The translations under genes and the position numbers were made by a program. A DNA stretch of 64,000 bases from Spirochaetia bacterium (GTDB lineage: Bacteria; Spirochaetota; Spirochaetia; DSM-2461): positions 5,088,001 to 5,152,000 of the forward strand of contig OY764216.1 in assembly GCA_963668315.1 (NCBI GenBank), written 5' to 3'. The notes beneath the pieces were generated by a model. It made no database searches. It had not been told where the DNA came from and saw nothing but the letters and a program-made list of their open reading frames with translations. This document shows, piece by piece, positions 6,098 to 17,248 of this stretch (position 1 is the first letter of the stretch; each line of letters opens with the position of its first letter).

Positions 6098-7270
6098 ATG
6101 ATCTTAAACGAAAATTCCGAAAAAAAAATCATTCCCATTGCCGGGGGCAAAGGGGGCGTCGGTAAAAGCGTATTGTCCACAAACCTTTCCCTCCTTCTGG
6201 CTGTAAACGGAAAGAAGACGATTGTGGTTGACCTTGACCTGGGCGGTTCCAACCTCCATACCATGCTGGGACTTAAGAATACCAATAAGGGCATCGGAAA
6301 TTTTATTTCTGACAAATCGCTTACGATGGAAGAACTGATTGTTCCCACCGAATTCGATAATCTCTATTTAATCCCCGGAGATGTTCTTGTATACAGGCTC
6401 GGTGAAATCTCCTTTGAGGAGAAAAAAAGAATAGTGAAAGGCCTGGTTGAACTTGATGCCGATTACATAATCCTTGATCTGGGGGCCGGTTCGAGCCTGA
6501 ACGTCATTGACTTTTTCCTGATTTCCAATTCGGGAATTATCGTTACGACCCCCCATATGACTTCCATAATGAACGCCTTCGGTTTTTTAAAAAACGTCGC
6601 TTTCCGCTTTCTGCAGAGAGCCTTTGCAGAAAACCAGGTGTTCACCGATTACTTTGATCGGGCGTTTCAGGAGAGGAATCCCGGAGAACAGAAGTCTCTC
6701 AAAGAGATGCTGGAAGACCTGAGAGATCAGGAACCGGAGGCCGTGAGCAAAGCGGAACTGTTCCTGGAGATACTGCAGCCGAAAATTATAATGAATATGG
6801 CCGAGGATGCCTCAGAACTTTCCATAGCTGAGAGTCTGAGAGATCTGACAGGCCGCAGCCTATCCATCCATTCAGAGTGCCTTGGCCTGCTTTTCATGGA
6901 CAAGCAGGTAAGTGATGCACTGAAAGAGAGGGTTCCCTTTATCATGCAGTACCCCGAATCGGTAACTGCCGAGGGTATGGACCGAATGGCAAAGAAGATT
7001 ATCCTCTCAAAAAGATTCCCCGAAATGCCCCTGGAACTGGATTATTATAAAGACAGCTTCGAACTGACCCAGATAGAAGCGGAAAATGATCAGGAAGCGA
7101 TAGAGCAGACAAAAAACAACGGCTATTCAGCAGAAGAGATCGATAACCTCCTCCATCTTATAGAGGAACAGCAGAAAAGGATTCATGAACTGGAAACAGC
7201 CCTGGGACGTACGGCTATGGGCGGCGGACAGGGCGGTATTCTGGAAACATTAAATAGAATGTCTCTATAA
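6098..7270 (+). CDS. MinD/FlhG-family P-loop ATPase with C-terminal coiled-coil extension
   Basis: Deviant Walker A GKGGVGKS, plus DLDLGGSNL and ILDLGAG. Confidence 0.85.
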   Translation: MILNENSEKKIIPIAGGKGGVGKSVLSTNLSLLLAVNGKKTIVVDLDLGGSNLHTMLGLKNTNKGIGNFISDKSLTMEELIVPTEFDNLYLIPGDVLVYRLGEISFEEKKRIVKGLVELDADYIILDLGAGSSLNVIDFFLISNSGIIVTTPHMTSIMNAFGFLKNVAFRFLQRAFAENQVFTDYFDRAFQERNPGEQKSLKEMLEDLRDQEPEAVSKAELFLEILQPKIIMNMAEDASELSIAESLRDLTGRSLSIHSECLGLLFMDKQVSDALKERVPFIMQYPESVTAEGMDRMAKKIILSKRFPEMPLELDYYKDSFELTQIEAENDQEAIEQTKNNGYSAEEIDNLLHLIEEQQKRIHELETALGRTAMGGGQGGILETLNRMSL

Positions 7271-7312: not shown

Positions 7313-7876
7313 CTATGCTTTTCCATCAAAGCCGAAAGGCTGCATCCATACGGGAATGACCTTACTGAGAATATCAACTGCGCTCTGCGCATCATTTCTC
7401 GCAATTCTCATATTTTTCCAGAGTGTCATAAGCACAAAGTTCTCCACCATTTTTCCCGCATCGTCGCTCTGGTAGACAACGTAGGATTCATTGTATCCCG
7501 TCTCATTTAAAACAGTAAAGGCTGTGAATGTTTCCACCGGTTTCTTGGCGATGTAAATACGGTCCTGCCGCTTGGTCACATAACGCTCAAGTTCTTTAAA
7601 GCGATAGGGAATTCGATGGGTATCTGCACGATAACAGGGATCAATCCCTTTCTGAATATAAGATAGCGGCTCATACAGAACATACAGTTTCCGACCGTCT
7701 GCCTGAAAAGTCATTCCCTCGTCGGTCTGATATATATCCTTCACATTCCCGTAAGAAATTGCTTCAAATCGAGTATAATTTGAAGATTTATCAAAAAAAA
7801 CAGAAACGATATATCCCCCTTCCTGGGGCAAATCGCCTTCCATATATGCTTCAAAAAGATCTTTTATCTCAGCCAT
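7313..7876 (-). CDS. Hypothetical protein (187 aa)
   Basis: Clean ORF with an AGGAG RBS; no motif recognised. Confidence 0.75.
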   Translation of the reverse strand: MAEIKDLFEAYMEGDLPQEGGYIVSVFFDKSSNYTRFEAISYGNVKDIYQTDEGMTFQADGRKLYVLYEPLSYIQKGIDPCYRADTHRIPYRFKELERYVTKRQDRIYIAKKPVETFTAFTVLNETGYNESYVVYQSDDAGKMVENFVLMTLWKNMRIARNDAQSAVDILSKVIPVWMQPFGFDGKA

Positions 7877-8031: not shown

Positions 8032-8838
8032 ATGGATTTATCTTCAGCTTTCTCTATCTACAATCTTCCCGATTCAAAGCTTTCACGCGAGGACATAGAT
8101 AGAAGCTTCAAAAAACTCGTAAAAAAATATCATCCCGACCGCAACCAAAAGTATGCGGACTGGTGTCATGAGCGAATGACAGAAATCAATGAAGCCTATG
8201 AAATTCTCATGGGGTATGTGGAAGCTGACCTGGGATCGGACCACAGAGGCAGTAATAGCAGCGGGGGTAACAGAAAAAATGAGTCCTCCCGCGAATCAGA
8301 TTATGGGAGCACGAACTTTTTCAGAAAAGCGGCGAAGCTGTTTTTCGAAGGTGTTCACACTTATTACGATTACGAACTGACAAAAAGATCCCTCCGGCAG
8401 GAAGGGGTCTGGAAATATCACTACCGCAGAGCGGTAAAGATGATGAATAAAGCTCTGGATGAATGGGAAAAAAGAATTACCGCCCATCCTGAGGACAGGG
8501 AAGAAGAAAAATTCCTCTATTTCGGCCGCCTTTTTCTCGCAGATATAGAGGCACAAGAACCTCAGATTCCCCGCTTGATGGGAGATGAAAAGACCCATAT
8601 CGCCTACAGGGAAGCTGTAAACAGCATAGATAAAGCATTTTCAGGTTTTTTCAGCGCCGAAAGGGGTGCAAGAGAAAAACATCTTGCCCCCCTGTATAGA
8701 GCTTCGCACCTGTTGATACTTCTCGTAGAAAATTATCCTCAGACCGAATGGTATAACCTGGCCCTGCAGAAACTGAACTTACTTGATTCATTTCTGGATC
8801 TGCAGGACCTTTTCAGGACGGGAAAAATTACTTTTTAA
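8032..8838 (+). CDS. J-domain (DnaJ-like) protein
   Basis: KYHPDRN ... INEAYEIL J-domain at the N-terminus; helical C-terminal part. Confidence 0.85.
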   Translation: MDLSSAFSIYNLPDSKLSREDIDRSFKKLVKKYHPDRNQKYADWCHERMTEINEAYEILMGYVEADLGSDHRGSNSSGGNRKNESSRESDYGSTNFFRKAAKLFFEGVHTYYDYELTKRSLRQEGVWKYHYRRAVKMMNKALDEWEKRITAHPEDREEEKFLYFGRLFLADIEAQEPQIPRLMGDEKTHIAYREAVNSIDKAFSGFFSAERGAREKHLAPLYRASHLLILLVENYPQTEWYNLALQKLNLLDSFLDLQDLFRTGKITF

Positions 8839-11437
8839 GGTTATGCCGGGCAATCGCCAGTTTTGCAATGGGAATCCCATAGGGTGAGCAGGAAACATAA
8901 TTCAGTCCTACTTCCTTGAAGAAATCCACATTTTCCGGTTCAGCTCCGTGTTCTCCGCAAAGTCCCATCTTCAGATCAGGTCTGACCATGCGGCCCCTTT
9001 GACCGGCAATGCTGATAAGTTCCTTAACAGCCGTATTCAGCGAAGAGAAGGGATTCTTTTCCAGAAGGTCAAACTCGTTATAATCAGGGAAGAATGTATT
9101 AAAGTCATCCCTGGATAATCCCATGGTAGTCTGGGTCAGATCGTTCGTACCGAAACTGAAAAAATCGGCATATCGGGCTATCTGACCGGCGAGAATAGCC
9201 GCTGAGGGTAACTCGATCATCGTACCGACATGGTAGGGAAGAATATCCACTCCGAGCCTTTCCCGTACCTCTTCTTCAATAGTTTCTATACCCACGATCT
9301 CCTTGCCTTCGATCTTCTTGCCGTATCTGACAGCTTTAAGCTCGCTGGGACTCATGACGATAGGAATCATAATTTGCGGACTGGAGATAATATTATCTTC
9401 CTTGCGAAGCTTATAGGCCGCCTCAAAGATAGCAGTAACCTGCATTCTATATATTTCCGGTATGGAAATGGCCAGTCTAACGCCCCTGTGTCCAAGCATG
9501 GGATTCACTTCCCCGATGATGTCACAACGGTTCCGGATCTCTTCGGCGGTAACACTCGGGTGGGATTTCTGGAAGAAGGAAACGAACTCGTCCATTTTCT
9601 CTTTCGTATGGGGAAGAAATTCATGGAGGGGAGCATCGAGCAGTCTTATGGTAACAGGCATTCCATTCATGATCTTGAAGAGTTCATAGAAATCTGTCAT
9701 CTGCATTTTCTGCAGCTGTTTCAAAATCTTATCCCGGTCCTTGCTGTCATCGGTGATGATCATAGAACGGAAGATAGGAATACGTTTATCGTCAAAGAAC
9801 ATGTGCTCAGTCCGGCAGAGTCCGATTCCTTTAGCACCGAATTTTTTTGCCAATTCCGCTTCCCGAGGCTGATCGGCATTAACATAAACGTCGAAGTCCT
9901 CAATTTTTCTCTGAACGATTTCCATAAAGTCCAGCAATCCGCTCTCTTCTATGGATGGCTCTATCAGATCAACCTTACCGAAATAGATCGTAGGTTTATC
10001 ATAGGAAGGAACATCAAGAGAGAGATAATCCCCCTCATTTACCTGTATTCCGTTTATCTTCATTCCCTTATCGTTAAACTTGATATCGGGATTGATCATG
10101 GCAATCTTACCAAGGGAACGGGCTACTACCGGAGCATGGGATGCATATCCCCCGTCTCTGGCGATAACCCCGCGACTGACTTCAATAGCCTTTACATCTT
10201 CGGCATAGGTTGAGGGCATGGCCAGGATGAAGTGATCTTCCAAACCTCTCTGATGGGCGATCCTGGCTTCCTTGACAAGTCGTTCGGTGGAAAAGAAGAC
10301 ACGTCCCACGGCGGCACCGATAGCACCGGAGATTCCCCCTTTCACGGACTTGATCTTTGCCGCTGAAGCTTTGTTCAGAACGGGGTGAAGTATCTCGGCC
10401 AGACGGGGAGGACGGATATCATTCACCGCATAGGCATCGTCAATCAGCCCCTCCTTGTGAAGGCTCAGTAAAGTCTGAATTTCCGCCATGGCGGATTTGT
10501 TCGTAGCTTCATTCTGATCAATGATCCAAAGCTTTCCGTCTTCCACAGTAAACTTTATTCTGCGAATCTCTTTATAATGAGCCTCAAGGGTCTTTGCCAC
10601 CGGTATCAGCGCATCAAGATATTTACTATTCAGCTTGAGAATGTCCGCACCCGTGGAATCCATTTCATCAAAGGAGTCCTTGAAATACAAACCGGAAAGC
10701 TCATTTTTACCGGTTTCAATATCTCTGGTATAGAAAAATCCGGAATAGCTCTCTTTGCCGTAATTACCGAAAGTCATGGACTGGATAAGAAGAGCCGAAT
10801 CGTTCAGGACCTCACTCTTTTTGAATATCTCTTTATAGCGGGTTAGAACATAAAGGAGCTGAACATCGGCATTTTCAAACAAATCAGCAGGATAGAAAGT
10901 CTTGATTTTCTTCAGAAATTCCTTCGTCTCGGGAATTCCCTTGGCTGCGGAAGCTTCATCGATGAGAGCGGATATTTTTTTCAATATCTTCTCATCCTGT
11001 TCAAGTTCCTGATCAAGAAGGAGAATTCTTTTAAGCATTCCTCTGTATTCGTGATAGGCGAACTCCTCCCCCACCTTATCGGCGAATCCGCCCAGGGTAG
11101 TGTCGCAGAGACCTATATTGTGAATACTGAAAGTAGTATCAACCATATTTAAAGTCGTGCTGACAACAACTTTCACGAGGAGAGGGTTTTCACCGCTGTT
11201 ATACTGCTTTTCAACAATCGGTTCCATCGTACCAAGCTGCTCATTCAGCATGGTCAGAGTTTTTTCCCTATTCTCCTCTAAAGTCATAACTGTATCGTTT
11301 GTCAAAACGAAACCGGGAAGAATAGGAATATCCAGAGCAGCCAGCTCCATCATTCGCTGTCCGCGGACACCGCAGAGTTCCAATTCCTGGTCATTTTCTG
11401 CATACACGGTTTTACTGAAGGGAAATACGGCATTCAT
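8828..11437 (-). CDS. ppdK: Pyruvate,phosphate dikinase homologue with degenerate nucleotide-binding domain (PEP-utilising, Enzyme-I-like)
   Basis: GGYASHAPVVAR (His434), GIGLCRTEHMF, EVNPMLGHRG, FSFGTNDLTQ and GLCGEHG are intact. N-terminal ATP-grasp motifs are altered. Confidence 0.9.
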   Translation of the reverse strand: MNAVFPFSKTVYAENDQELELCGVRGQRMMELAALDIPILPGFVLTNDTVMTLEENREKTLTMLNEQLGTMEPIVEKQYNSGENPLLVKVVVSTTLNMVDTTFSIHNIGLCDTTLGGFADKVGEEFAYHEYRGMLKRILLLDQELEQDEKILKKISALIDEASAAKGIPETKEFLKKIKTFYPADLFENADVQLLYVLTRYKEIFKKSEVLNDSALLIQSMTFGNYGKESYSGFFYTRDIETGKNELSGLYFKDSFDEMDSTGADILKLNSKYLDALIPVAKTLEAHYKEIRRIKFTVEDGKLWIIDQNEATNKSAMAEIQTLLSLHKEGLIDDAYAVNDIRPPRLAEILHPVLNKASAAKIKSVKGGISGAIGAAVGRVFFSTERLVKEARIAHQRGLEDHFILAMPSTYAEDVKAIEVSRGVIARDGGYASHAPVVARSLGKIAMINPDIKFNDKGMKINGIQVNEGDYLSLDVPSYDKPTIYFGKVDLIEPSIEESGLLDFMEIVQRKIEDFDVYVNADQPREAELAKKFGAKGIGLCRTEHMFFDDKRIPIFRSMIITDDSKDRDKILKQLQKMQMTDFYELFKIMNGMPVTIRLLDAPLHEFLPHTKEKMDEFVSFFQKSHPSVTAEEIRNRCDIIGEVNPMLGHRGVRLAISIPEIYRMQVTAIFEAAYKLRKEDNIISSPQIMIPIVMSPSELKAVRYGKKIEGKEIVGIETIEEEVRERLGVDILPYHVGTMIELPSAAILAGQIARYADFFSFGTNDLTQTTMGLSRDDFNTFFPDYNEFDLLEKNPFSSLNTAVKELISIAGQRGRMVRPDLKMGLCGEHGAEPENVDFFKEVGLNYVSCSPYGIPIAKLAIARHNLKK

Positions 11438-11454
11438 AGACTTATCCTTACAAT

Positions 11455-12426
11455 TTAAAATAGATCAAGAACCGCTCCGACCGGTCCATCGAGAAAGGCT
11501 TCGAAACGGGAACTGGCACCTTCGAAAAGATACTTTTTCAGTTTGGCAACACCTTTGATATCCGCTCCGGCCACGCTGAACATGATAGGGTTACCCCTTT
11601 TCACCTTTCCCCACTTAAAAAGGGCATTAATATCGTTTATTCGTTCACCGTCATACCATATAAGAACATCGCAACCGGGATGGGCAACTTTGTAACTTTC
11701 AATGATTTTCTTCCATGCTTCAACATTACCGTTGTGAAAAAGCTCATTGGTTACGGTAATACCGTATTTTGTAGAAATACGCCGCGGGCCTCCCGGGGCG
11801 GCAGACAGTTCTGAAGGTTCCGCCTCGGAGATTTCGGGAGCGGCAGGAGCTGCCGGCTTTGCCTCCACGGGAATAGAAGCGGGAACCGATTTTCCATCGG
11901 AATAGGCTTTTTTGCCCTTAATATTCGCCCCATAAAGAAGTTTGTAAAAATCGTCGACACAATCATCAAGACTGCTTTTATCAATTCCACTGTCACCGGA
12001 TGGTCCGGCATAAAAAACGATCATTTCACCGTCGTAAAGAGGTAGGTCATTCCACTGGTCTTTGTCCGCAGGATTAATGACGCTCACTTTCCCGTCCGTA
12101 TCCCAGACAAGAAGAACGAGGTGGCATTTATTCCAACCGGCAAGAGTTTCGGCAATTTTATCAACTTTCCCCAGCTTCCCCTTTATATTATGGGAGCGGT
12201 AGGAAAATCCAAACTTATCAACAAGAAGAATATTAATGATGGGAAGTATCTGATATTCATCAATTTCCCGGTTTCCCAGCGACTCATTAATCGCGTCAGC
12301 GAGGTTATACCCCTCGCTGACGTCGTCTGAGAAACCAAGGGCCATTTTGAAATGGCCCAAAGCAAGGTTAAACCCCGCTCTACTAGATAATAGGTTTAAT
12401 TTATTATCCTGTATGGTTTCAGTCAT
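11455..12426 (-). CDS. Uncharacterised protein with C-terminal HPr-like domain after a Pro/Ala linker
   Basis: Tightly coupled between cfpA and the ppdK-like gene. The C-terminal ~90 aa align by eye to HPr, with His231. Confidence 0.75.
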   Translation of the reverse strand: MTETIQDNKLNLLSSRAGFNLALGHFKMALGFSDDVSEGYNLADAINESLGNREIDEYQILPIINILLVDKFGFSYRSHNIKGKLGKVDKIAETLAGWNKCHLVLLVWDTDGKVSVINPADKDQWNDLPLYDGEMIVFYAGPSGDSGIDKSSLDDCVDDFYKLLYGANIKGKKAYSDGKSVPASIPVEAKPAAPAAPEISEAEPSELSAAPGGPRRISTKYGITVTNELFHNGNVEAWKKIIESYKVAHPGCDVLIWYDGERINDINALFKWGKVKRGNPIMFSVAGADIKGVAKLKKYLFEGASSRFEAFLDGPVGAVLDLF

Positions 12427-12428
12427 AT

Positions 12429-14390
12429 TTACATATCTCTCAGTTCATCAAGATTTACTTTCTTCCTTCTGGAAGGAGTTACATCGGCTTTTCCCTTGGG
12501 AGCGGCGTCTTCACTGGCAGGTGAAGCCAGTTTCTGCGCATACTCGGCTCTCGTGGGTTCTGTTTCTGCAGAAAAGCTCTGATTGATGTCGTCCCTGACA
12601 GTAGAACGTCTTCTCTTGAAGGAAGCAAATGCTGCATCCTGGAATCCTTTGGATATGCCGTTGAGGAACTCATTAAGCACATTGGCCATGGAATTCAGAG
12701 TGTACTTCTTTCTCTTGATGCTGGTGATATCAACATCAAGAAGCAAACCGGGCTGTACATGATAGGGATTGATCAGGTAATCAAAATCATTGAATTCCCT
12801 GTTCAGAAAGGCAATTCTTTCATCAATAACGACACGGGTCTTGGGATTCTGGTAACCGTAGATGAGGCTGACCTTCTCAGAGGTTTTCTTAAGCATTTTC
12901 TTAAGAAGATCTTTCTCGTAGAGATAAGTCTGGTTAAGCTTCTCTACATCCGTATCCTCTTCACGAATTCTCAGGATCTCGTTCCAGGTTTTTTCCTGCT
13001 CTTCATAGATGGGATCACCGGATACATCCTTGATGGTTTTCTTGATTCTGCTTCTGACCTTTTTAGCCAGATCATCAAAATCGTTAACAGCCATAGCCTT
13101 CTTGCTGCTCTGGTAAACAACTTCGACGACATCAAACACATGGGTGATTTCCTGCTGGAAAGCATTCATCTGTTTGTCATAGGCTTCACGCTGTTTGATC
13201 AGCTGAGAACTATCGTAATATTTGAGTCTCATGCTGTATCTTTCATCGGGGAGAAGATCTACATCGGTCTGCTCATACTCGCGAAGGACCAGTTCACGGG
13301 CTCCTTTAAGGTTCTCAACATACTGATACCCCATCTTGCTGGTATCCAGAATTGAGGTAAGGTTGTTGATGGATGTATTGAAACCGCGGTTTCTGATATT
13401 TTCCATATCAACGATCTTCTTGATGTTTTCACGGATGTTCAGAGGATCGAATTCCTCGGGATCAATCTCGGCTCTGAGACCTTCGATCTTATCGACAAGG
13501 TTCTTTGCCATGAAAGTATATCTCTTGGAATCTTCGCTTTCCGCATCATCGTCGGTGAATTCGGGAACACGCTTGATCTTCTCAAACATCATTTCCGTAT
13601 CGGAAAGTTCTTCCTTACCTTCGTCTACGAGCTCATCCTGGTAGATCTCGATTTCCTTGTCGATCATTTCTGTTACGGTTTTGGAAATCTGCTCTTTGAT
13701 GATGTACTCTACGGTTGCCTGGTACTGGAAAATCGGACTGATAAGCTCGGAATCAAGAATATTGATGGAGAGCTTTACGTCGGAAACGGTTTCCGGTTTA
13801 CTGGCGTTATCCTTAAATGAACACTTAACGATGGAGTAAGCATTTTCACCACGGATAAAAGCACCAACATCAGTTTTCTGGCGGAGAAGGGAGTTGGTCT
13901 CGTTTTCAAGATCATTCAGTCCTCTCTGTACATGTCCCTGAAGGTGACCGTACATGTTAACAATGGACTTCTCAATCTCACCGGTGTTGAACTTGTCGGC
14001 ACCGCCAATCTGATCAAGCATTTCGGCAATTTCTTTGGGAGTATAACGGGCCAGCTGTTTCTGCTCTTCCTTATCGATGAAACCTCTGATCTTTTTGACC
14101 ATTTCATCTTCGGAAGTAACCACGTAACGGTTGAACATGTTCTGATAGTTCTGGTTGACGTAGTTATAAAGCTTCTCCTTGAGACCGCCCATGACTTCCA
14201 ACTGCTGAAGCACTTCCTTGGGCAGTTTAGTCTGAACGACATTTAATACTTTATCCGCTTCTTCGTTTATTAGTCTTTCATACTCTTCTTTCTGGGATCT
14301 TCCTTCCTGGGCCAGAGAGTTTCTGGAACCTACGGCCGAAGGTTTAGTAGGATGAAATACATTCGGACTTCTGGGCAATTCACCTGCCAT
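12429..14390 (-). CDS. cfpA: Cytoplasmic filament protein A
   Basis: N-terminus [24 protein letters not shown] is typical of spirochaete CfpA; coiled-coil-rich; strong codon bias. AGAGGAG RBS lies 6 nt before the ATG at 14390. Confidence 0.93.
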
Positions 14391-14436
14391 AATCATCTCC
14401 TCTTTTACTGTTGTGGTGTAGGATTATCTAAAAACA

Positions 14437-14465
14437 ATTATAAAACAGTATACTCCTTATTTCAA
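14437..14465 (-). promoter_or_regulatory. Sigma70 promoter of cfpA operon
   Basis: TTGAAA-N17-TATAAT on the minus strand with AT-rich upstream sequence. Confidence 0.75.
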
Positions 14466-14518: not shown

Positions 14519-17248
14519 TTAGTGCCTATCTAGCCAGCTCTGCACTTCCTTCCTGAAGTTTTCGCAGTTACTGGTTTCAATCAACTCGTTCATCTCCTTA
14601 ATATAGGGAGAGACATCCAGCCCCTTCTCATAAGAGTCGGAGTATTCATTTTTCAACTTTTCAAATATATTTGTATGTTCAGCCAGTTCGCTCTCAAGGA
14701 GGCGAGCAGCGATATACCAGATATTGTCATCGGGCTTAACCTTATAGACGAGATCCCCCGGGATCTTCAGTACAAGCCCCGGCTCGATTATGGTGGGGTC
14801 GGCCCCGTCGACGACATGAAAACCAAGATCACGGTAACCGTTCATAACCGAAATGGCATTCGCCTTCAGATGGATATCAGCCATGGTGATTCGGATTCCC
14901 CCCACCGTGAAGTCATCAAGAAAATCATTGTCCATGACAAAGGGTTTCGTGACTATCGTGTCTGCCGTATCAATAAACTTGACTTCAGGACTATCCGTGC
15001 CGTTTTCCGCCGGAATAATCTCGGCATCTCCCCCGGAGAGAGGTGAAGAATCGGGAACATCCTCGCGACCGGTGAGAACACGTTCACCCGAAGCATTGGG
15101 ATCTCCTGCGTTACCGGACCTGCCTGCCGCGCTGTCTCCCGAACTTTCTCCCGTGGAGTATCGGTCATTACCATTTGTTACGGAATCACCGGTTCCTACG
15201 GCAGCGTTTTCACCGTCGACACGGCCTTCGGCTCCCTGTGCCGTATCTGACCCGGTTTGCATACCGGAGGCAGATGGATCAGGACTCTGATCCTGTGCAG
15301 GATGCCCCTGCGTCTGTGCTCCCGATTCCGTGACCGTTTCGTTGTCGCGGGAAGAAAAATTCCGGCGGACAAATGATCTATCGCCTCTACCGAAATAATC
15401 ATAGCCAAGAAAGCCGAGAAGAGCCAGCAAGAGAAGGAGCAGACCGATTATGGGCCATTTTCTCCCTTTGGAGGAAGAGGCTCCAGGCCTGCCTGTGGAT
15501 GGCCCTGAGAAACTCGCTGAGCCGGGTTGATTGAAAGAAGAAGCCGGTTTAGTGGTTGAGGATGAATCCGATGATGCAGCGGCGGAGGAGGCCGCTTTTT
15601 TCGCAACGCTTTTCTCCTCGGCAAGACTCTCTTCATATTTTTTCATATCCTCCCAGAGAGTGCCCTCATTCAAGGCGTTCAGTATGGCTTCCAGCCTCTT
15701 TCTCTCAGAGAAGAAAAAATCGACCTCTTTCTTATCGCACTGAAGCAATGCCTCATGCATATCGGCCGCTTTTTTGCGGTCACCCGCGGAAATATCAAGC
15801 TTATAAGGAAGATAGAAGCATCCATCCCCGTAACAGTTAGCCGAAAAGAGAAAATCGTCAGCCTGCTGACGGGGCGGGGGGAAGGTTTTACCGAGCAGTC
15901 CTGCCGCTTCTTCCGCTTTTTTAGCCAGGGGTCCTTCCTCCCGGGAGAGAAGGGAGAGAAAAACCACGCAGTTGCAGGCAAATATACCTACCCTTTCATC
16001 TCCCCCTTTCCCGGAATTCCGAAGAAGCCTTTTCATTTCGGCGAAGCTCTTTTCCTGGGGAGGGGAAAGCTGGTTCTTATTTTCTCTCAATCCATCGAAT
16101 AGTCCCGCTACAGCTGAAGCCGTCTCTTTTACAAAAAGAATATCATCGGCCTTCATCTCACTTCGCAGAAGAGCGCGGGAGGTTCTATCGATATAGAGCT
16201 TTTTCAGTTTTTCCCAATCGGGGCTGTCACTGTATATCCTGACCGGAACACCATCGGGAAGAAGACAGTCCTGTTCCACACCATTAAAATTGAGAAATAC
16301 CCCGCCTTTTTCATTAATTTTCGCTGAGATTTTATCGTCCAGATGAAATAGAAAGCTGTCTCCTTCCCATTCTCCGGCAGTTCCATTCCATTCGAATTTT
16401 CCCTTGGCGGAAATATCCTTGAATTGTATGGGGACATCTCTGGATTGCACGTATTCAAAGAGGGGCTCAATTTTCCCGGAAAAGCTCTTATCCCTGGAAA
16501 AGAAGGTCATGGGATTCTTTGCGGCTATGCCTCTTTTAATGAAGTTCATGACACCGGCAGACTTATCCCCTTCCATCTCATCAGGTTTGAGGTCAACCAG
16601 AATACCTTCCAGCCTGTCGGGATTCCATCCGGCACGGGCTAACTTTTTGAAATAGTTTTTATCCCATTTCAATCCCAAAAGTTTGCTGCCGTCAAAAAAG
16701 TAAAGATCCTCCCCGACGCGGAACAGCCCCTTCTCCCTGATACTACCCCCTTCCCAACGGAGAGGATTTTTTCTGAAGATAGTGAGGATTTCAGAGCAGT
16801 AGTAATTATAATGGCGGTCGGATTTTTCTCTCGCATAAAGATCAAAGAGCCTCTGCTCCCCGAAAGTCACGACAATATTGCCCGTATTGTAAAAGTAGAC
16901 ATGATCCTTCCCTTCCCTCTCTTCCTGCTCCCGATAGGAGATGACGTCAGGATCGGTTACATGGAAACGGTCAAAGAAACTTTTGATAACCTCAACAATC
17001 TTAGGCTCGCCCAGATAGCGCCCGCGGTATTTGTGAGTAAGACCCACTTCGCCGAAGGGATTACCTGTGAAAGATTCGGTGATCACAGTATGAGAAATTA
17101 CTTCCAAAACCTGTTCATTCAGCCAGGAACTGTTCCCGATACGAACAAAAGGTTTTATGTCAAGTTCATCTATTCCAAGAAAAAGCAGATAGCATTCACG
17201 GTCAATCCTGAACACTCTGTTCTCCCATGGAATTTGAGTAAAGCTCAT
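14519..17248 (-). CDS. Large bitopic membrane protein with C-terminal LysM-like motifs
   Basis: One TM segment (WPIIGLLLLLLALLGFLGY) flanked by Ser/Gly-rich linkers. DPTIIEPGLVLKIP and YKVKPDDNIWYIA resemble LysM motifs. Confidence 0.75.
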   Translation of the reverse strand: MSFTQIPWENRVFRIDRECYLLFLGIDELDIKPFVRIGNSSWLNEQVLEVISHTVITESFTGNPFGEVGLTHKYRGRYLGEPKIVEVIKSFFDRFHVTDPDVISYREQEEREGKDHVYFYNTGNIVVTFGEQRLFDLYAREKSDRHYNYYCSEILTIFRKNPLRWEGGSIREKGLFRVGEDLYFFDGSKLLGLKWDKNYFKKLARAGWNPDRLEGILVDLKPDEMEGDKSAGVMNFIKRGIAAKNPMTFFSRDKSFSGKIEPLFEYVQSRDVPIQFKDISAKGKFEWNGTAGEWEGDSFLFHLDDKISAKINEKGGVFLNFNGVEQDCLLPDGVPVRIYSDSPDWEKLKKLYIDRTSRALLRSEMKADDILFVKETASAVAGLFDGLRENKNQLSPPQEKSFAEMKRLLRNSGKGGDERVGIFACNCVVFLSLLSREEGPLAKKAEEAAGLLGKTFPPPRQQADDFLFSANCYGDGCFYLPYKLDISAGDRKKAADMHEALLQCDKKEVDFFFSERKRLEAILNALNEGTLWEDMKKYEESLAEEKSVAKKAASSAAASSDSSSTTKPASSFNQPGSASFSGPSTGRPGASSSKGRKWPIIGLLLLLLALLGFLGYDYFGRGDRSFVRRNFSSRDNETVTESGAQTQGHPAQDQSPDPSASGMQTGSDTAQGAEGRVDGENAAVGTGDSVTNGNDRYSTGESSGDSAAGRSGNAGDPNASGERVLTGREDVPDSSPLSGGDAEIIPAENGTDSPEVKFIDTADTIVTKPFVMDNDFLDDFTVGGIRITMADIHLKANAISVMNGYRDLGFHVVDGADPTIIEPGLVLKIPGDLVYKVKPDDNIWYIAARLLESELAEHTNIFEKLKNEYSDSYEKGLDVSPYIKEMNELIETSNCENFRKEVQSWLDRH

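Follow-up and report, generated by a model that had tools for sequence, protein, structure and literature searches.

The window considered here is a stretch of 64,000 nucleotides from a Spirochaetia bacterium (GenBank assembly GCA_963668315.1, contig OY764216.1, positions 5,088,001 to 5,152,000), and the gene of interest is one that resembles ppdK, the gene for pyruvate, phosphate dikinase (PPDK). Its product is a PPDK paralog of the type represented by TP0746 of Treponema pallidum, and to call the gene ppdK is very probably a mistake, because the canonical ATP/AMP/pyrophosphate (PPi) site is lost across the whole family, the half that binds phosphoenolpyruvate (PEP) is intact and the same genome has another ppdK, which is canonical. 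In the reading that we favour, with about even confidence, the TP0746-type protein would act with the product of the adjacent gene, a TP0747-like partner, in a PEP relay resembling that of Enzyme I and HPr and tied to the filament formed by CfpA. The original prediction, made from the letters of this DNA, had anticipated the lost nucleotide site, the intact PEP half and the mistaken label; it left out the partner genes, which point to a possible destination of the phosphate. The gene and the parts of its product are as follows.

8828..11437, minus strand: TP0746-type PPDK paralog, 869 residues, with an apparently rebuilt N-domain and intact phospho-His and PEP domains
10418..11437, minus strand: residues 1-340, the former nucleotide-binding (ATP-grasp) domain, with K22, R92, D321, E323 and R337 all replaced
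10136..10138, minus strand: codon of His434 (= H455, the swivel-domain phospho-His), within GGYASHAP, present in 86/86 orthologs
8831..9937, minus strand: residues 501-869, the PEP/pyruvate-binding barrel, with R542, R598, E742, N765, D766 and C827

The open reading frame (ORF) is single and intact, with an ATG start and an AAGGA element 7 nt upstream of it, and the protein aligns end to end with the PPDK of Clostridium symbiosum (phmmer E 7e-146). It scores 669.8 bits against TIGR01828 and does not reach the equivalog cut-off of 843.45. The Pfam domains PF02896 (PEP barrel) and PF00391 (phospho-His swivel) are both found above their cut-offs, and PPDK_N leaves a trace of only 58 residues. Against TIGR01417, the model for Enzyme I of the phosphotransferase system (PTS), the score is 109.9 bits versus a cut-off of 341.7, and no helical HPr-binding Pfam domain was found. 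Identity to the genome's canonical PPDK is 47% in the PEP domain and 23% in the N-domain.

The residues diagnostic of PPDK are K22, R92, D321, E323, R337, H455, R561, R617, D769 and E745 (PMC13147460, citing Herzberg 1996). Alignment with the genome's canonical PPDK gives the replacements K22=R25, R92=V91, T253=S232, D280=M259, D321=R293, E323=K295, R337=E310 (N309 by pairwise alignment) and T453=A432, so that none of the five nucleotide-site residues K22, R92, D321, E323 and R337 remains (0/5), and the loss of K22, R92 and D321/E323 that had been noticed by eye is borne out. The retained residues are H455=H434, R561=R542, R617=R598, E745=E742, N768/D769=N765/D766 and C831=C827, again as predicted. 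The labels Q240, T253, D280, Q335, T453, N768 and C831 stand outside that published list and were mapped via the genome's canonical PPDK. The prediction had counted Q335 and R337 together as lost. The loss of R337 holds, but Q335 is probably kept: MAFFT places it at Q308 in 86/86 orthologs, with a one-residue insertion, and phmmer at D307, so that the register is ambiguous.

The same pattern runs through the family. The ortholog set comprised 86 proteins (67 of the 80 loci found with the partner, 13 cut or split ones being dropped; 18 of 20 further regions; and the window protein), and was set against 18 canonical controls (the genome's own PPDK and 17 of 20 lower-scoring rows, three without a recovered motif ORF being dropped). 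Locus L069, the only one in which the gene is split, was excluded from the residue counts. None of the five nucleotide-site residues is kept in 83/86 orthologs and one in 3/86, against all five in 18/18 controls. The K22 position is an invariant Arg (86/86), a conservative change; the R92 position is V, A or L in 86/86; the E323 position is R or K in 83/86 and E in none; D321 survives in 2/86 and R337 in 1/86. Conversely, H455, R561, R617, E745, N768, D769, C831, Q240 and Q335 are present in every ortholog. Of the columns that do not vary among the controls, the family retains 17/121 in the N-domain, 18/40 in the His domain and 85/103 in the PEP domain; the difference between the N-domain and the PEP domain argues that the residue loss is due neither to chance nor to sequencing error. 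A frameshift or sequencing artefact in this gene was ruled out by the single ORF and the family-wide pattern.

The N-domain looks rebuilt rather than decayed, since it has invariant residues of its own (R25, K89, S93, H106, E130, F256, R292, E299 and S315); the inability to carry out the ATP/AMP/PPi half-reaction, which the original prediction proposed, is accordingly to be read as a putative one. The swivel domain likewise has invariants particular to the family, namely A412, K416, E419 and K444, which is what a new docking face would show. In a quick tree built from the His and PEP domains, 33 TP0746-type rows form one branch (SH-aLRT 98) apart from five canonical rows; the Enzyme I rows sit on long branches and the TP0746-type proteins group with the PPDKs. 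As a separate observation, the proteins of L100, L108 and families f12, f26 and f34 are ∼965 residues long with a split N-domain match, which suggests an insertion of ∼95 residues.

The second ppdK for which the original prediction had proposed a search lies at C1:3574948-3577608 and scores 1206.4 bits against TIGR01828 over 805 residues. Since a pyruvate kinase gene is also present, the TP0746-type protein is not needed as a PPDK in this genome, which has five further PEP-utiliser genes and one true HPr adjoining an HprK-like ORF (HprK judged by eye). Two near-identical, divergent Enzyme I-like genes (C1:4491607-4492434 and C1:1667904-1668731) lie on a long branch of the quick tree. It had further been argued that the Ala in place of the regulatory Thr would prevent phosphorylation by the PPDK regulatory protein. 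The substitution is real, and T453 is kept in 0/86 orthologs (A in 62, S in 24), but the argument carries little weight, because no gene for that regulatory protein (PF03618) was found in this genome (97% complete) and two of five divergent homologs retain the Thr. Regulation by the PPDK regulatory protein was accordingly rejected as a factor here.

The gene is the third of an operon on one strand, in the order cfpA, TP0747-like partner, TP0746-type gene, with gaps of 2 nt between cfpA and the partner and 17 nt between the partner and the TP0746-type gene. The upstream features are the following.

14437..14465, minus strand: sigma-70-like promoter candidate, 11/12 matches, ∼40 nt upstream of cfpA
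12429..14396, minus strand: cfpA, cytoplasmic filament protein A, 655 residues (NF040882 1096.1 bits, cut-off 500)
11455..12426, minus strand: TP0747-like partner, 323 residues, Pfam PF27497 (TP_0747_N), with two domains predicted to be HPr-like and, between them, a linker modelled at low confidence
11926..12207, minus strand: partner residues 74-167, predicted HPr-like fold without a conserved His before the first helix
11497..11778, minus strand: partner residues 217-310, predicted HPr-like fold with His231 (codon 11734-11736)

The promoter candidate is the best site in 10.6 kb; the total number of sites, 10, is not above that in shuffled sequence (15.9). No RNA holder is listed for the cfpA operon. 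In Treponema denticola the corresponding genes, TDE0842-0844, are repressed together (PMC3914990).

This gene order is widely conserved. The TP0746-type gene directly follows the partner in 79/80 partner-found loci, the 80th being cut, and cfpA precedes the partner in 74/80, five of the six misses being contig ends. Among 301 Spirochaetota genomes, the partner occurs in 109, CfpA in 109 and the TP0746-type N-domain in 109 (called at E 1.2e-34 or better, with a gap to the next hit at 2.6e-30). The genome sets of the partner and the TP0746-type protein are identical (109/301), and all three genes occur together in 108; these counts are descriptions and not a test, since related genomes are not independent. 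The partner and TP0746-type genes are adjacent in 102/109 genomes. Family f44 includes six genomes in which the partner gene lies away from both cfpA and the TP0746-type gene; all three genes are nonetheless retained there.

Structure prediction gives the partner two HPr-like folds. Its 100 C-terminal residues were HPr-like by eye. The full-length model has a predicted local distance difference test (pLDDT) score of 75, and its Foldseek matches include HPr chains; in a wide structural search with this model the top five rows were HPr or NPr, all on residues 74-167, which superpose on E. coli HPr with Z 9.9 and a root-mean-square deviation (rmsd) of 2.1 A over 80 residues. The C-domain modelled alone (pLDDT 85.9) has the strand-helix order of HPr, beta-alpha-beta-beta-alpha-beta-alpha. 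Its top 24 Foldseek rows are HPr or Crh (prob 0.93-1.00, best E 0.009), and its top four rows in VIA are HPr (Z 6.7-7.0, rmsd 2.2-2.8 A, 78-81 residues), followed by an unrelated row at 5.9. In this model His231 stands just before helix A (232-248), within one residue of His15 of HPr by the starts of the alignment ranges. Sequence searches with the partner against PDB, Pfam and NCBIfam found nothing useful, PF00381 (HPr) matched 0/51 partner C-domains at E 10, and hhalign detected no homology between the two domains. Atlas, the source of the name TP_0747_N for PF27497, gave best scores of <0.9 for the partner, which count as leads only.

The partner has more than 2,600 homologs. His231 is conserved in 80/80 loci, in 20/20 further regions and in 120/120 among the homologs listed, and the mean column identity of the C-domain is 82%. 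Among remote matches of at least 100 bits it is present in 83/86; below 100 bits it is seen in 13/40, and 19 of those 40 do not cover the site. Two long matches, P0290 and P0294, were discarded as spurious.

More distant relatives extend the picture. Ten stand-alone relatives of the C-domain, most of them without the His, served as queries in a scan of metagenomes, which gave 29 loci. In 22 of these (mostly short; only three are 12 kb) neither cfpA nor a TP0746-type gene was seen near the stand-alone domain, and the other seven (L182-L188) contain the full trio, with the partner His in 7/7. Five complete divergent TP0746-type proteins keep H455 and all PEP residues (5/5), although the K22 position is Gln, H106 is lost and T453 is kept in 2/5; in L184 (761 residues) ∼70 aligned N-domain columns are missing and the PEP half is intact. 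That the PEP residues and the histidines persist while the N-domain drifts argues that what selection maintains is the PEP site together with the two histidines, rather than the nucleotide site. The stand-alone family itself (L160-L181) consists of proteins of ∼118 residues, mostly without the His and mostly on high-GC metagenome contigs. NCBI sources annotate CfpA of the divergent trios as 'cytochrome C oxidase subunit II', and one of these CfpA proteins is labelled Deltaproteobacteria by its source.

The relay reading has an observed basis in the loss and retention of residues, the gene order, the co-occurrence and the conservation of both histidines. In this mechanism, the phosphate of PEP would pass to His434, as in PPDK and Enzyme I chemistry, and the swivel domain would carry it on to His231 of the partner. 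The partner may dock on the rebuilt N-domain where ATP formerly bound, just as the helical domain of Enzyme I holds HPr, and invariant Arg and Lys residues of the N-domain could stand in for Arg17 of HPr, which the partner lacks. Judging from gene linkage, the double-HPr partner would read out on the CfpA filament, and the output, set by the PEP/pyruvate ratio, may be filament assembly, anchoring or segregation work. By analogy with Enzyme I, the partner is the likely but putative acceptor of the phosphate from PEP. A bolder version, which is tentative and rather doubtful as a whole, is that CfpA, the double-HPr protein and a PEP:protein phosphotransferase descended from PPDK make up a phosphorelay of their own, which couples the glycolytic state directly to the cytoskeleton, perhaps ending on H151, H155 or H546 of CfpA; that it was derived from PPDK independently of the PTS; that it extends beyond spirochaetes; and that T. 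pallidum obtains pyruvate via PEP carboxykinase (PEPCK) and oxaloacetate decarboxylase rather than the annotated PPDK. H151, H155 and H546 are invariant in 83/83 CfpA sequences.

Several results weigh against this relay. The best match to the HPr fold (Z 9.9) falls on the His-less domain of the partner, and HPr folds here can thus be plain adaptors. For the C-domain, no Foldseek row reaches E 0.001, a VIA Z of 7 lies in the range which that tool calls common, and hhalign against HPr is weak (probability 1.2-1.8%, E 0.03-0.04). The HPr motif beyond the His is absent (F-H-N-G-N versus G-x-H-x-R-P, with no Arg17), and His231 is missing in three of the 86 strong remote matches. The link to cfpA is the looser one, with the partner and cfpA adjacent in 90/108 genomes, some of the misses being contig ends. 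We know of no PPDK that phosphorylates a protein. T. pallidum supplies further points of this kind, discussed below with metabolic activity.

Some of these results would suit a PEP/pyruvate sensor without onward transfer, in which the protein phosphorylates itself on His434 and the position of the swivel switches binding to the partner, an adaptor on CfpA, with His231 serving in binding or structure. The high conservation of the whole C-domain and not of the His alone, the absence of the His from the N-terminal HPr-like domain and the existence of His-less stand-alone relatives are consistent with such a sensor, as is the fact that HPr can act by binding alone, e.g. in its complexes with Rsd, glycogen phosphorylase and CcpA, which are among the fold matches. 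However, His231 probably occupies the phosphate-carrying position of HPr and persists in 7/7 members of the divergent clade, in which the N-domain of the TP0746-type protein has drifted, and in the stand-alone relatives the loss of the His accompanies the loss of linkage to the TP0746-type gene. We regard the sensor as unlikely.

A further explanation that we consider improbable is that the protein is still a metabolic phosphotransferase, whose rebuilt N-domain hands the phosphate to AMP/PPi, ADP or a different small molecule, and which is merely co-expressed with the filament or carried on it. In its favour, the length of the N-domain is kept, and R25 (for K22), Q219, Q308, K89, H106 and R292 are invariant. 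In rifampin phosphotransferase, K22A abolished activity and a Mg-ligand mutant did not: E297A, whose equivalence to E323 is presumed, was still active (PMC4844700). That result urges caution in reading single residues; in the TP0746-type protein, nearly the whole site has changed. The loss covers 104 of the 121 control-invariant N-domain columns, and the acidic metal ligands have become Arg or Lys (83/86 at E323). Moreover, the divergent clade lacks R25 and H106, and a large part of the N-domain is deleted in L184, where the PEP half remains intact. The presence of canonical PPDK and pyruvate kinase in this genome also speaks against a metabolic role, as does the pairing with the partner in 109/109 genomes, which such a role leaves unexplained.

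The evidence for residual metabolic activity is strongest in T. pallidum. The proteins of locus L092 (genome G094) are letter-identical to PPDK_TREPA, Y747_TREPA and CFPA_TREPA, and PPDK_TREPA (TP0746) shows the same substitutions as the window protein, with 609.1 bits against TIGR01828. No pyruvate kinase was found in G094, where the sole PEP-utilisers are the TP0746-type protein and Enzyme I; nor was there a second PPDK, and of all the evidence this speaks most strongly for some remaining activity in metabolism. No pyruvate kinase or other PPDK/PEP synthase was found in G196 (89% complete) either. TP0746 is assumed in PMC10013896 to be most likely to turn PEP, AMP and PPi into pyruvate and ATP, and in T. 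pallidum ppdK ranks with the most highly expressed genes (PMC8525777), which would suit a metabolic role. The main text of the paper on the iTP251 model (PMC12097511) does not mention dikinase, pyruvate kinase or TP0746, and its supplements may list the reaction; the RefSeq name of TP0746 is 'putative PEP-binding protein'. On the other side, G094 has genes for GTP-PEPCK and the beta subunit of oxaloacetate decarboxylase, a possible bypass. Together, these two enzymes can convert PEP to pyruvate with a gain of GTP. In addition, among seven other genomes with a TP0746-type protein and no PPDK above the cut-off, pyruvate kinase is present in 6/7, the exception being G196.

A catalytically inert, structural part of the filament system, as the tight genetic link to a cytoskeletal protein and the high expression might suggest, is very improbable, given that 86/86 orthologs and 5/5 divergent homologs have kept the catalytic Cys, the phospho-His and every residue of the PEP site.

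Several observations concern CfpA and the surroundings of the operon. In CfpA, H15, H151, H155, C192 and H546 are nearly or fully invariant (81-83/83) and may be acceptors or metal ligands; one genome (G005; C97, C69 and C102) holds three CfpA copies above the cut-off. Upstream, window 14519-17248 (minus strand) encodes a protein of 909 residues that is of low complexity in its central part, has one likely membrane segment and matches LysM weakly; a homolog precedes cfpA in most loci, and the protein is a candidate membrane anchor for the filament. Downstream, a J-domain protein (window 8032-8838, plus strand) converges on the TP0746-type gene with an 11-nt overlap and has a homolog in the same place in many of the 80 loci, often followed by a gene for 187 residues (window 7313-7876). 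A MinD/ParA-family ATPase (window 6098-7270, plus strand) lies ∼1.5 kb from the end of the TP0746-type gene.

Loss of the treponemal cytoplasmic filament leads to chromosome condensation and filamentous cells (PMC3398590), and the TP0746-type protein and its partner are concrete candidate partners of this filament. If the relay reading is correct, it describes a PEP-driven protein phosphorelay on a PPDK scaffold, and the annotated 'PPDK' of the syphilis bacterium would not be a normal glycolytic enzyme. The question of the last glycolytic step of T. pallidum is reopened, because TP0746 is without the residues of the canonical ATP site and the one genome searched, G094, yielded no pyruvate kinase. 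Of the Spirochaetota genomes sampled, about one in three (109/301) has an annotation that is affected. A full-text search, with subscription articles and the original cfpA papers outside its scope, found no published description of the loss of the nucleotide site or of an HPr-like TP0747.

Four known systems invite comparison. The TP0746-type protein shares with PPDK (EC 2.7.9.1; C. symbiosum 1DIK/1KBL; TIGR01828) the three-domain order, the full length, the phospho-His and all PEP-site residues, and differs from it in scoring below the TIGR01828 cut-off, in forming a separate clade, in its fixed partner genes and in the replacement of five nucleotide-site residues. With Enzyme I/HPr of the PTS and EI-Ntr/NPr it has in common a PEP barrel with a swivel His, the lack of a canonical ATP site and an adjoining protein of predicted HPr fold with a His placed by the model just before helix A. 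Unlike Enzyme I, however, it is of PPDK descent and has a rebuilt ATP-grasp domain in place of the helical domain, and its partner differs from HPr in having an HPr-like fold twice and in matching no HPr model of Pfam; this genome, moreover, has Enzyme I-type genes of its own and a true HPr whose gene lies next to one resembling HprK. In rifampin phosphotransferase a scaffold of the PPDK/PEP synthase family has likewise been repurposed and is often misannotated, but as a mirror image, with the ATP-grasp domain and the His kept, the PEP domain dropped and a small molecule as the acceptor (PMC4844700). The fourth is the locus made up of TP0748 (cfpA), TP0747 and TP0746 (ppdK) in T. pallidum and of TDE0842-0844 in T. 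denticola, where the three genes and their order are the same, and PPDK_TREPA shares the substitutions; the published accounts cited here treat TP0746/TDE0844 as a glycolytic PPDK and TP0747 as hypothetical. The TP0746-type protein most likely works as Enzyme I does with HPr, yet belongs to neither of those families and falls outside PPDK as well.

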